From a virus (Duplodnaviria; Heunggongvirae; Uroviricota; Caudoviricetes): DNA of 10,990 bases. Position numbers and translations under genes: made by a program. The notes beneath the pieces are model-generated. The model did no database searches and had not been told where the DNA came from. It saw only the letters and a list, made by a program, of their open reading frames with translations. The stretch lies in IMG/VR virus record IMGVR_UViG_2617270964_000005; one strand, given 5' to 3'. Of this stretch, positions 9,476-10,990 are shown piece after piece (positions within the stretch are counted from its first letter, which is position 1; the number at the start of each line of letters is the position of its first letter).

Positions 9476-9487
9476 AGGTCGCCGCCC
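9476..9487 (-). other. cosN, the 12-nt cohesive-end site (minus strand reads GGGCGGCGACCT)
   Basis: Plus strand AGGTCGCCGCCC at 9476..9487 is the exact reverse complement of the lambda 12-nt cohesive end. Flanking sequence on both sides resembles lambda as recalled (right end ...GGTCCTTTCCGG(T/C)GATCCG...GTTACG, left end CTCGCGG(G/T)TTTTC(G/A)CTATTTATGAAAATTTT). Confidence 0.85.
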
Positions 9488-9739: not shown

Positions 9740-10207
9740 TTAGTTCAGGCACTGAGTGCGGATATAGTCCTGTGCCCCTTCCAGCTGCTTCTGCATTGTC
9801 ATCAACCGTTCTCTGAGGATGAAATAATCCCGTTCAGCGGTGTCTGCCAGTCGGGGGCCGGTTGCATTATCCACGCCGGAGGTGCCGGTGGCTTCACGCA
9901 CGGTACCGGAGCAGGTGGCGTTGATCCGCAGGCGCTTACGACCAGCGGCAACATCAGCACGCAGAGTTTCATTTTCAGCTCTCGCATCGGCTAATTCCCT
10001 CGAGTATCTGGCATCAAGTTCAGCGACATCACGCTGGCGTATCTGCATATCAGTAATTGTCGCGTTCGCCAGTTTCAGCTCACTGACTTTTTTATCGCGC
10101 TGCGCTTTGTAGGTGATGGCGTTATCGCGGTAATGATTCAGCCCCAGACTAAGCACACCACAGGCTACCAGCAGGACAATAATCACCACACACAGAACAC
10201 GGTTCAT
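9740..10207 (-). CDS. Rz: Inner-membrane spanin Rz (155 aa from the ATG at 10207)
   Basis: [95 protein letters not shown]...[22 protein letters not shown] is highly similar to lambda Rz as recalled. The track ORF extends to 10291, but that extension has no similarity to Rz and overlaps a separate small ORF. Confidence 0.92.
9802..9987 (-). CDS. Rz1: Outer-membrane lipoprotein spanin Rz1, embedded in the +1 frame of Rz (61 aa)
   Basis: [61 protein letters not shown] is similar to lambda Rz1 as recalled, with a lipobox (VSAC), a Pro-rich segment and a conserved WIMQP...[11 protein letters not shown]-terminus. ATG at 9985..9987. Confidence 0.88.
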
Positions 10208-10208
10208 A

Positions 10209-10295
10209 TCACCACCAACGGATTGCCCAGACCAGAACAGCAATGGCCACAATACGAATGGCAAATGCCATTGCCCGAATAAGTTCAGCACTCAT
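10209..10295 (-). CDS. Hypothetical 28-aa hydrophobic peptide (small ORF 3); its stop lies 1 nt before the Rz ATG
   Basis: Manual translation from the ATG at 10293..10295 gives [28 protein letters not shown], then TGA at 10209..10211. Not in the ORF track (too short). Core [14 protein letters not shown] resembles RALAFAIKWVAVGIAV in small ORF 2. No obvious Shine-Dalgarno. Confidence 0.3.
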
Positions 10296-10306
10296 CTTTT
10301 TAAAGT

Positions 10307-10429
10307 TCACGATTTCAGCGCAATGACCAGTTTTGCCAGCCCATACAGCATCGGAGACACAGCAATACCAACAGCCACCCACTTAATAGCAAAAGCCAGC
10401 GCTCTGCTGATGTCATCAGTCACTGTCAC
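10307..10429 (-). CDS. Hypothetical ~40-aa hydrophobic peptide (small ORF 2), GTG start assumed
   Basis: In-frame GTG at 10427..10429 (or 10421..10423) gives VTVTDDISRALAFAIKWVAVGIAVSPMLYGLAKLVIALKS, stop TGA at 10307..10309. It is the C-terminal part of the track's 90-aa ORF 10307..10579, whose own start is a TTG and whose N-terminal part overlaps small ORF 1 in another frame. A GGGG run lies about 7 nt upstream of the GTG. Confidence 0.3.
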   Translation of the reverse strand: MTVTDDISRALAFAIKWVAVGIAVSPMLYGLAKLVIALKS

Positions 10430-10557
10430 CCCAGCAGCCCCGACGAAGACAACATCACCCAGGCGAGGGACAGAAAAAGAGCAACCAGCATTAGTGAAAA
10501 TGAAATACCGACAATCACACACAGGACCTTTGCCGGCGTTATGAGTTTGTCTGACAT
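10426..10557 (-). CDS. Hypothetical 43-aa single-pass membrane peptide (small ORF 1) resembling the N-terminal membrane anchor of Rz
   Basis: ATG at 10555..10557 preceded by a strong AAGGGG Shine-Dalgarno with a 5-nt spacer. Product MSDKLITPAKVLCVIVGISFSLMLVALFLSLAWVMLSSSGLLG, stop TGA at 10426..10428. Shares GTCCTGTGTGTG...ATTGTC and GGGGCTG DNA strings, and the peptide motif (K/R)VLCV, with the 5' end of Rz at about 10150..10200. Confidence 0.45.
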   Translation of the reverse strand: MSDKLITPAKVLCVIVGISFSLMLVALFLSLAWVMLSSSGLLG

Positions 10558-10720
10558 AGCTACCCCTTAATTGCCACAATTAACTGGGATACTACCCATA
10601 AAAAAGGGATGCTCCAGACCAGCAAAAATTTCCAGTTTGGTAATTGACTAATCATGAGTCGCAACTCCCTAATCAGTTTGCTAAAATCAATCAAGGCAGC
10701 CTCCCATAGCTTACTGCCAT

Positions 10721-10760
10721 AAAAACAAAACCCCGCTTGCTGCCAACAAACGGGGTTTTT
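10721..10760 (-). terminator. Rho-independent terminator (strongest on the minus-strand transcript; possibly bidirectional) between the endolysin gene and the small ORFs
   Basis: Minus-strand RNA: 9-bp stem CCCCGUUUG / CAAGCGGGG (one G-U pair) with a 7-nt loop, followed by UUUUGUUUUU. On the plus strand the same hairpin has one C-A mismatch and is followed by TTTTTACTTTTATT. Confidence 0.6.
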
Positions 10761-10849
10761 ACTTTTATTCACTTACATTTTGCCAGTTCGCAGGATTTCG
10801 TGTTATCCGTCCGCCTTGGCCAACGTCATTTATTAGCAAAATATTCTGC

Positions 10850-10990
10850 TTATCTGTCGATTCCCCAGCACGCCAGCGCGCTCTCCTGGTCACGACGGGA
10901 TACCTGACCGTAACAGTTATTTGAGCGAATACGGCAGTCCCTGCCACCGTCCTTAATCCACCAGCGAATCGCCTCACACGCTCCCCTGCG
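10850..10990 (-). CDS. 3' end of an endolysin gene (T4-lysozyme-like, phage 21 R / RrrD type); the 5' part lies beyond the window end
   Basis: Open frame running in from the window edge with stop TAA at 10850..10852. It encodes ...RRGACEAIRWWIKDGGRDCRIRSNNCYGQVSRRDQESALACWGIDR, which resembles the C-terminus of phage 21 / DLP12 lysozyme as recalled (...[36 protein letters not shown]). Not in the ORF track because no start codon is in the window. Confidence 0.5.
   Translation of the reverse strand, partial: RRGACEAIRWWIKDGGRDCRIRSNNCYGQVSRRDQESALACWGIDR

Follow-up and report, generated by a model that had tools for sequence, protein, structure and literature searches.

Lambdoid lysis cassettes are among the best-studied gene sets, and their usual scheme is S-R-Rz/Rz1. 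What, then, occupies the several hundred base pairs (bp) that separate the endolysin gene R from Rz, the gene of the inner-membrane spanin (i-spanin), in the Escherichia coli prophage of the caudoviricete record IMGVR_UViG_2617270964_000005, of which we analyzed a stretch of 10,990 nucleotides (nt), hereafter termed the window? An original prediction, made from the letters of the window, had estimated this gap at about 640 bp and had placed within it three short open reading frames (ORFs), which it regarded as amplified copies of the membrane anchor of Rz. The gap measures 642 bp and contains four micro-genes for single-helix membrane proteins, here termed ORF0, ORF1, ORF2' and ORF3. Judging from their conservation among relatives, ORF0 and ORF1 are very probably real protein genes under selection.

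Four micro-genes between R and Rz

All genes at this end of the window lie on the minus strand. The components of the cassette, from its upstream end towards Rz, are as follows:

10727..10759, no strand assigned: GC-rich hairpin with a T-run on both strands, resembling an intrinsic terminator (terminator scan, 15 pairs; fold z = -4.8)
10560..10694, minus strand: ORF0, 44 amino acids (aa), TTG start, MIDFSKLIRELRLMISQLPNWKFLLVWSIPFLWVVSQLIVAIKG; matches phrog_6632 at E 1.3e-12 (profile positions 2-43 of 45)
10426..10557, minus strand: ORF1, 43 aa, ATG start, MSDKLITPAKVLCVIVGISFSLMLVALFLSLAWVMLSSSGLLG; matches phrog_4906 at E 4.5e-21 (profile positions 7-49 of 49)
10307..10429, minus strand: ORF2', 40 aa, GTG start at 10429-10427 overlapping the TGA of ORF1 (gGTGA); apparently derived from a 48/60-aa gene (MEKYKRILLRLTMKNGLELKAPVTDDISRAVAFAIKWVAVGIAVSPMLYGMAKLIIAVKS) by N-terminal truncation
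10209..10295, minus strand: ORF3, 28 aa, apparently chimeric; matches phrog_4493 at E 3.8e-6; its TGA lies 1 nt before the ATG of Rz

Stop and start codons are separated by 2 nt between ORF0 and ORF1, overlap as GTGA between ORF1 and ORF2', and are separated by 11 nt between ORF2' and ORF3 and by 1 nt between ORF3 and Rz. For the three ORFs of the original prediction (43, 40 and 28 aa, in three different frames of the minus strand), the coordinates agree with its description, including the position of the last stop codon immediately ahead of Rz, and each product indeed carries one strongly hydrophobic stretch of 15-19 residues with a mean Kyte-Doolittle value of 1.9-2.9. The inventory itself was incomplete, however, as both ORF0 (10560-10694) and the hairpin (10727-10759) had been overlooked.

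Evidence for coding comes from diverged copies, which were gathered from a protein collection and from IMG/VR. In these relatives, ORF0, ORF1 and the family to which ORF2' belongs all keep their frame, length, start codon and Shine-Dalgarno (SD) sequence. The in-frame ratio of nonsynonymous to synonymous polymorphism (pN/pS) is 0.38 for ORF1, 0.22 for the ORF2 family and 0.41 for ORF0, as compared to 0.55-8.7 in the other sense frames. For ORF1, the estimate (pairwise Nei-Gojobori; codon bootstrap 0.25-0.55) is based upon 31 distinct DNA variants, which extend to ~57% aa identity and are all intact (42-44 aa, ATG, SD). The value for the ORF2 family (0.11-0.40) refers to its canonical form, of which 20-26 distinct DNA variants are constant in length, start and SD, while ORF0 is represented by 8 distinct DNA variants with off-frame values of 0.69 and 1.71. 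Furthermore, each ORF has its own family with a conserved start and stop in relatives, which rules out a single gene decayed by frameshifts and upholds the original view of separate small ORFs.

In ORF0, the sequence GGGAGG is located 5 nt upstream of the TTG, and the stop codon that precedes the ORF1 ATG is TAG. A non-ATG start (TTG or GTG) with GGGAGG or GGGAGA located 5-6 nt upstream is kept in four lineages, and homologues are encoded in at least six genera. The protein is predicted to consist of a basic amphipathic N-terminal helix followed by a C-terminal transmembrane helix, and its AlphaFold2 (AF2) model exhibits a helix-break-helix arrangement (residues 4-16 and 21-43) with a predicted local distance difference test (pLDDT) score of 82. 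The cytoplasmic N-terminal helix (IDFSKLIRELR..LPNW) is its most conserved part across genera. A 70-aa ORF at 10560-10772, labelled 'TPR_REGION' in one phage record, was rejected as an alternative form of the gene; its N-terminal half is interrupted by stop codons in relatives and overlaps the hairpin, and only its last 44 codons are conserved.

ORF1 has the strong SD that had been claimed for it (AAGGGG, 7 nt before the ATG) and encodes a single transmembrane helix with a predicted N-in orientation, modelled by AF2 as one helix spanning residues 3-38 (pLDDT 84). ORF1 DNA is present in 1702 of the 5426 complete E. coli genomes (31%), with a maximum of 11 copies per genome, and it is found at full length in 276 phage records, mainly those of Shiga toxin (Stx)-converting phages. 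In the O104:H4 phage P13374 it is 'ORF53', and in phi24B it is present without annotation (L268 1586-1732), its ATG overlapping the stop codon of ant.

ORF1, ORF2 and ORF3 are already RefSeq hypothetical proteins, and the counterparts WP_001280935.1, WP_042004856.1 and WP_032140280.1 have identical proteins on at least 1000 contigs each. None of the four ORFs has a Pfam or NCBIfam match at E <= 10, curated holin models included, nor did we find a match to the cassette peptides in a PDB sequence search, a family matching the cassette in Rfam, or a defense-protein match in PADLOC at E <= 1. A full-text search of the accessible literature for the peptide strings and the accession likewise yielded no paper. 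The families are so far recorded only as unnamed PHROGs and 'hypothetical protein' entries, in keeping with the original statement that no described family could be named.

The cassette is flanked by the following genes:

10850..10990, minus strand: 3' end of the endolysin gene R (rrrQ/R21-like lysozyme), whose translation ends in ...RRGACEAIRWWIKDGGRDCRIRSNNCYGQVSRRDQESALACWGIDR; stop codon TAA at 10850-10852
9740..10207, minus strand: Rz (i-spanin), 155 aa, from the ORF list, with its ATG at 10207, 1 nt past the ORF3 stop
9802..9987, minus strand: Rz1 (outer-membrane spanin, or o-spanin, lipoprotein), inside Rz in another frame, with a lipobox and a proline-rich mature part

Identical R DNA is labelled 'lysozyme' in RefSeq E. 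coli genomes, Rz is annotated as 'lysis protein' or 'endopeptidase Rz', and PF03245 is present in the Salmonella homologue. Beyond Rz, the order continues with cos, Nu1 and terminase A. The cosN sequence GGGCGGCGACCT, which is the lambda cohesive-end sequence, is located at 9476-9487 of the window (minus strand) between Rz and Nu1, where the terminator scan called a hairpin; its presence is consistent with the lambda-like Nu1/A terminase genes downstream.

Architectures and origin of the cassette

The nature of ORF2' and ORF3 becomes apparent from their relatives. In most of these, the canonical ORF2 is a gene of 48 aa (MKNGLEL...) or, with a conserved SD, of 60 aa (MEKYKRILLRLTMKNGLEL...), and the 60-aa form matches its PHROG profiles end to end. 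ORF2' matches phrog_1115 at E 6e-25, over positions 30-67 of 67 only, as well as phrog_4493 and phrog_3246. Its 5' part is substituted by the end of ORF1, and it is evidently a truncated copy of the canonical gene. Two loci (L084 and L085) look like intermediates, as a full ORF2 is followed there by ORF1, the truncated ORF2' and ORF3. For ORF3, which lacks an SD, the motif likeness to ORF2 that was noticed originally proved to be real (p <= 0.0005 in 2000 shuffles), and both proteins match phrog_4493 and phrog_3246; the two are evidently paralogous. The 5' two-thirds of ORF3 align with P0048 (MNAELLRAAAFAIKW...), an ATG-started, 38-aa short gene of the ORF2 type, which at other loci is an ordinary gene, with coupling through an ATGA overlap. 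Its last codons (..IRWW and the stop) and the 1-nt junction with Rz match the 3' end of the ORF0-type genes of phages H-19B and SPN3UB, and in Enterobacter, Citrobacter and Klebsiella, members of this family genuinely terminate in ..RWW. By these alignments, ORF3 is a chimera of two small genes, and its 3' end is the normal junction between an ORF0-type gene and Rz.

Two other readings of the ORF2 region were rejected. PGAP calls ORF2 as a 51-aa protein from a CTG at 10462, with a 37-nt overlap with ORF1, but this CTG is not preceded by an SD, and the protein sequence of the upstream part is not conserved. A 33-aa ORF at 10315-10416 has no PHROG match and is off the frame of ORF2. In addition, phrog_3246 (90 aa) seems to derive from gene calls that were too long and ran into ORF1 in another frame, and both this profile and the 51-aa PGAP call are likely annotation artefacts.

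It is a serious possibility, if one that we would stop short of calling probable, that ORF2' and ORF3 are inert recombination scars, which are translated weakly or not at all. Relative to the canonical 48/60-aa gene, ORF2' is missing the SD, the ATG and 10-22 codons at the 5' end, while ORF3 is chimeric, has no SD of its own and is only 28 aa long. The window-type loci are 97-100% identical and vary too little for constraint to be demonstrated (for ORF2', 2 synonymous and 1 nonsynonymous changes; for ORF3, 2 and 2, with only 4 distinct variants). On the other hand, practically all of the ~140 window-type loci (not a count of independent loci, since the first two IMG/VR scans partly drew the same contigs) keep both frames intact, as do the 589 genomes that contain the region at >=80% coverage. 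The GTGA overlap and the short gaps permit re-initiation, and the two parts of ORF3 correspond to a normal coupled gene (P0048) and to a genuine C-terminus (..RWW), respectively.

The hairpin constitutes the 5' boundary of the cassette. Its core (AAAACCCCG...CGGGGTTTT), its T-run and an SD leader (consensus ..TTTCTGCACCTTGA..GGCAAGGGAGAAC) are located ahead of the first small gene in loci of E. coli, Salmonella, Enterobacter, Citrobacter, Pantoea and Brenneria, and this set was found in all contexts examined, across genera. In the minimum free energy fold of the minus-strand RNA at 10700-10730, the terminator U-tract GUUUUUAUGG pairs with the SD region of ORF0 CUAUGGGAGG, and this pairing could limit ORF0 translation. 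In a Salmonella locus (L170 2979-3005), an upstream ORF of 8 codons (MCREVYSL) begins at the conserved leader SD, and its stop codon overlaps the GTG start of a 60-aa ORF2 homologue as GTGA, which suggests coupled re-initiation. Upstream of the hairpin, the 3' untranslated region (3'UTR) of R at 10776-10834 contains 27 variants in ~60 nt among the 97-100% identical loci, as compared to ~17 in the next 550 nt. The pattern resembles a boundary at which recombination joined varied R alleles to a cassette that had spread only recently. The far greater uniformity of the cassette suggests recent lateral spread.

When examining the distribution of the cassette, we found the exact 841-bp region at >=99% identity in 108 complete E. 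coli records and at >=80% coverage in 589 of the 5426 genomes. The window has the order R-ORF0-ORF1-ORF2'-ORF3-Rz, and other loci have R-ORF2-ORF1-Rz, R-ORF0-ORF1-Rz or R-ant-ORF1-Rz. Salmonella encodes a lysozyme of 161 aa followed by ORF2 and Rz. With endolysins of glycoside hydrolase family 108 (GH108), the endolysin gene is followed by ORF2 (or by a 65-aa ORF plus a 38-aa gene), ORF1 and a small lipoprotein, with no Rz, whereas with GH19 endolysins (Enterobacter and Citrobacter) an ORF0-type gene precedes a 92-aa i-spanin with a 61-aa o-spanin. The slot between endolysin and i-spanin is thereby used with five endolysin types, namely the rrrQ-type R (window; H-19B), a related 180-aa lysozyme (SPN3UB), the Salmonella 161-aa lysozyme, GH108 and GH19, and the small gene abuts or overlaps the i-spanin start. 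In the classical Stx1 phage H-19B, the ORF0-type gene (45 aa, GTG start, stop 1 nt before Rz) is unannotated (L266 1495-1632), as is that of the Salmonella phage SPN3UB (L267 1801-1938). Two E. coli prophage cassettes (L164 2259-3486 and L262 1571-2961) contain Phage_holin_8, Phage_holin_3_7 and a GH108 endolysin with no recognizable Rz-like spanin; in these, ORF1 is directly followed by a 51-60-aa lipoprotein (lipobox LVGC; phrog_7528, which has no assigned function).

Based upon this census of architectures, the intermediates L084 and L085, the junction sequences and the alignment of the ORF3 chimera, the origin of the cassette is very probably mosaic and not derived from Rz. Recombination among allelic or paralogous cassettes would have produced the present arrangement, and the result would be a horizontally mobile mosaic cassette of single-pass inner-membrane micro-genes, with ORF0 representing a family 'A', ORF1 a family 'B', and the ORF2' family sharing the A slot. 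A common slot, a common leader and similar termini suggest that the ORF0-type and ORF2-type genes are homologous.

Expression and possible function

A sigma-70 consensus scan of the coding strand, by which weak promoters could be missed, gave no promoter-like match near the cassette. Together with the terminator-like hairpin in front, this result suggests that the cassette would be transcribed only by late RNA polymerase under Q antitermination. The explanation that we favor, albeit tentatively and at slightly less than even odds, is that of a mobile mosaic cassette encoding late-expressed inner-membrane accessory proteins. The cassette would share the late transcript of S, R and Rz/Rz1, made by Q-modified RNA polymerase only, its genes would be translated in series by tight stop-start coupling through to Rz, and the products would be inserted into the inner membrane. 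ORF0 and ORF1 would then be non-essential accessory factors of the late program, most probably tuning the timing or efficiency of envelope disruption, while ORF2' and ORF3 would be either weakly expressed short paralogues or recombination scars. That the cassette functions in lysis at all is possible, though somewhat doubtful; the Mu releasin and the P2 LysA would be its precedents. It is unlikely, if attractive, that micro-proteins of the ORF0/ORF1 type represent a fourth class of lambdoid lysis component besides holin, endolysin and spanin, which would be coupled in translation to the i-spanin gene and gate or tune the final disruption of the envelope. In Stx phages (H-19B, phi24B and the O104:H4 phage), they would then adjust when and how much phage and Shiga toxin is released, and in the GH108 cassettes lacking any Rz-like gene they might even aid outer-membrane disruption jointly with the small lipoprotein encoded downstream.

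A number of observations weigh against this favored explanation. Firstly, the unit of hairpin, leader and gene is also found in Pantoea stewartii (L272 2501-2638), where a gpV-like spike gene with an Apex motif and the baseplate W/J genes flank it, and the same slot in Dryocola (L274 2070-2593) contains three tandem small membrane ORFs, one of which is ORF2-like; in Brenneria and Symbiopectobacterium, the unit is located after the large polyvalent protein LPD38. These contexts indicate that the unit is not tied to lysis genes. Secondly, in the Qin prophage of K-12, R is followed directly by Rz with no cassette between them, and the existence of related cassettes without the small genes implies that these genes are dispensable. 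Thirdly, the holin, endolysin and spanin types that accompany the cassette vary, which makes a specific phage partner unlikely; with the N-terminal helix of ORF0 conserved in the face of this variation, a target in the host or in the membrane appears more plausible. Fourthly, the GC content of the cassette is 46%, as compared to 54-59% in its flanks, as in morons. Individual copies are broken as well, with an in-frame TGA in one ORF0 (L213) and a 2-nt insertion in the ORF2 of two loci (L230 and L231), and hhalign relates the ORF0 type to the ORF2 type only weakly (probability 3%, E 0.015), so that their homology is not statistically established. The antisense frame that shares third codon positions with the sense frame is also open and has a pN/pS of 0.39-0.45, and as a consequence pN/pS alone cannot fix the strand. 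Finally, expression data were not found in the supplements of the Sakai ribosome-profiling paper or in the phi24B expression paper.

Several of these points would be equally expected of moron-type accessory genes that have no lysis function (e.g., genes for superinfection exclusion) and for which the R-Rz junction is simply a permissive slot, the main rival scenario, which we consider rather unlikely. It is supported by the occurrence of the unit among baseplate genes and after LPD38, by the presence/absence polymorphism among related cassettes, by ant occupying the same slot in Stx phages, by a GC content below that of the flanks, and by the uniformity of the cassette relative to the R 3'UTR. 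Morons, as defined by Juhala and Hendrix, have their own promoter and a downstream terminator and are expressed from the repressed prophage (PMC3594210). Of the features of morons, the cassette has the extra DNA, atypical GC and mobility (absence from K-12 Qin, a GC content of 46%, and occurrence in lysis, baseplate and other contexts), whereas the consensus scan revealed no promoter of its own and the only hairpin is located upstream of the first gene. Moreover, the genes are tightly coupled to Rz, the reuse of the endolysin/i-spanin slot in Enterobacteriaceae with five endolysin types is more regular than random insertion would be, and PADLOC yielded no match.

It is far less probable that the selected product is not a peptide, but rather an RNA or DNA element, an antisense ORF or small RNA, or a pair resembling a type I toxin-antitoxin system, whose antisense RNA would stop at the bidirectional hairpin. 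Small size and hydrophobicity make the peptides comparable to type I toxins, an open antisense frame exists, and the hairpin has a T-run on both strands. A sigma-70-like site on the plus strand (10551-10580, CTGACA-18-CACAAT with TG) faces the hairpin at 10727-10759 and could yield an antisense RNA of ~180 nt over ORF0. Its -10 element is not conserved in other ORF0 alleles, however, and the number of promoter-like matches is that expected by chance (2 found vs 1.9 expected); Rfam offers no match. Furthermore, it is the sense frames that have the lowest pN/pS, with fewer variable columns and more conservative replacements than the antisense frame, and the start, SD, stop and length of the sense genes are conserved across contexts, whereas the antisense ORFs vary from 40 to 76 aa. 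On these grounds, the case for the sense strand is strong but not absolute.

The weakest explanation is that of the original prediction, in which tandem copies of the 5' part of Rz, the segment for its membrane anchor, diverged into the three ORFs; it is so improbable that it can be set aside, as ORF1 has a family of its own (43-44 aa), ORF2 and ORF3 come from a separate family of 38-60 aa, and the resemblance between ORF1 and Rz is at chance level. The (K/R)VLCV(I/V) match (ORF1 residues 10-16, Rz residues 3-9) is 7 residues long and has p = 0.03 uncorrected in shuffles, with hhalign probabilities of 0.3-1.5% over 6-7 columns; the 11/12-nt string common to both genes is one among 11 comparable short repeats in the region, and the DNA alignment (p = 0.04 among six comparisons) is not significant. 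At the R-Rz junctions of relatives, ORF1 precedes differing Rz N-termini, including those of motif-free Rz proteins (P13374 and Salmonella-type), or, in loci without Rz, a lipoprotein. ORF1 as an i-spanin remnant was ruled out by the hhalign comparison together with an exhaustive profile search of 1.84 billion representatives, in which no full-length spanin with an ORF1-like N-terminus was found; all 29 matches were close relatives, fragments or read-through artefacts.

Conserved, selected micro-genes are probably to be found inside the S-R-Rz/Rz1 cassette in most Stx-converting phages sequenced so far, where they mostly lack annotation, and in roughly one in three complete E. coli genomes. 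If they are lysis modulators, they would matter for the timing of the burst and the release of Shiga toxin; if they are morons that exclude other phages or modify the membrane, they would matter for prophage competition. They also illustrate how faults in small-ORF annotation (a wrong CTG start, over-long calls, missed TTG and GTG starts) conceal real genes.

Comparison with known systems

By direct hidden Markov model (HMM) membership, ORF1 belongs to phrog_4906, ORF0 to phrog_6632, and ORF2 and ORF3 to phrog_1115, phrog_4493 and phrog_3246, which are sequence clusters only, with no associated literature. In phage P2, LysA is reportedly a non-essential membrane protein, encoded between K and lysB/lysC, that affects lysis timing, as the genetics of Ziermann et al. 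in J Bacteriol of 1994 are said to show, and it is said to have ~141 aa and several transmembrane helices. The cassette proteins have no sequence relationship to LysA. Holins and antiholins are similar in size, in possessing a transmembrane helix and in location, though no curated holin family matches the cassette peptides. With regard to type I toxin-antitoxin systems, hydrophobic peptides are present, but there is no Rfam family, and the opposite strand offers a single chance-level promoter-like site facing the bidirectional hairpin. The Rz anchor of PF03245 proteins is likewise a single N-terminal transmembrane helix encoded by an adjacent gene; the cassette peptides differ in having no significant homology to it, in being without a periplasmic coiled coil, and in being too short to span the periplasm.

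The Mu releasin gp25 (DUF2730) is a small, membrane-tethered, non-holin protein that possesses a single transmembrane helix; its gene lies downstream of that for the endolysin, at a distance of a few genes, and it is associated with various endolysin classes (PMC9239132). It has 99 aa, comprising an N-terminal helix (N-out/C-in) and an acidic cytoplasmic domain of 73 aa (PMC9239132). ORF0 resembles it in position only, as its layout is the opposite (a basic cytoplasmic N-terminus and a C-terminal anchor) and its length is 44 aa; none of the cassette ORFs matches DUF2730. The precedent for the moron scenario is gp15 of HK97, a small, YebO-like inner-membrane moron of a late operon, whose mobile gene is inserted between essential ones; it is flanked by a promoter and a terminator of its own, is active in the prophage, and mediates superinfection exclusion (PMC3594210). 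Like gp15, the cassette consists of small inner-membrane genes that are mobile and atypical in GC; unlike gp15, it has no detected promoter, its hairpin is located upstream, and there is no sequence similarity between the two. On the features that can be read from their sequences, the cassette products would be classed as small accessory membrane proteins of phage late operons.

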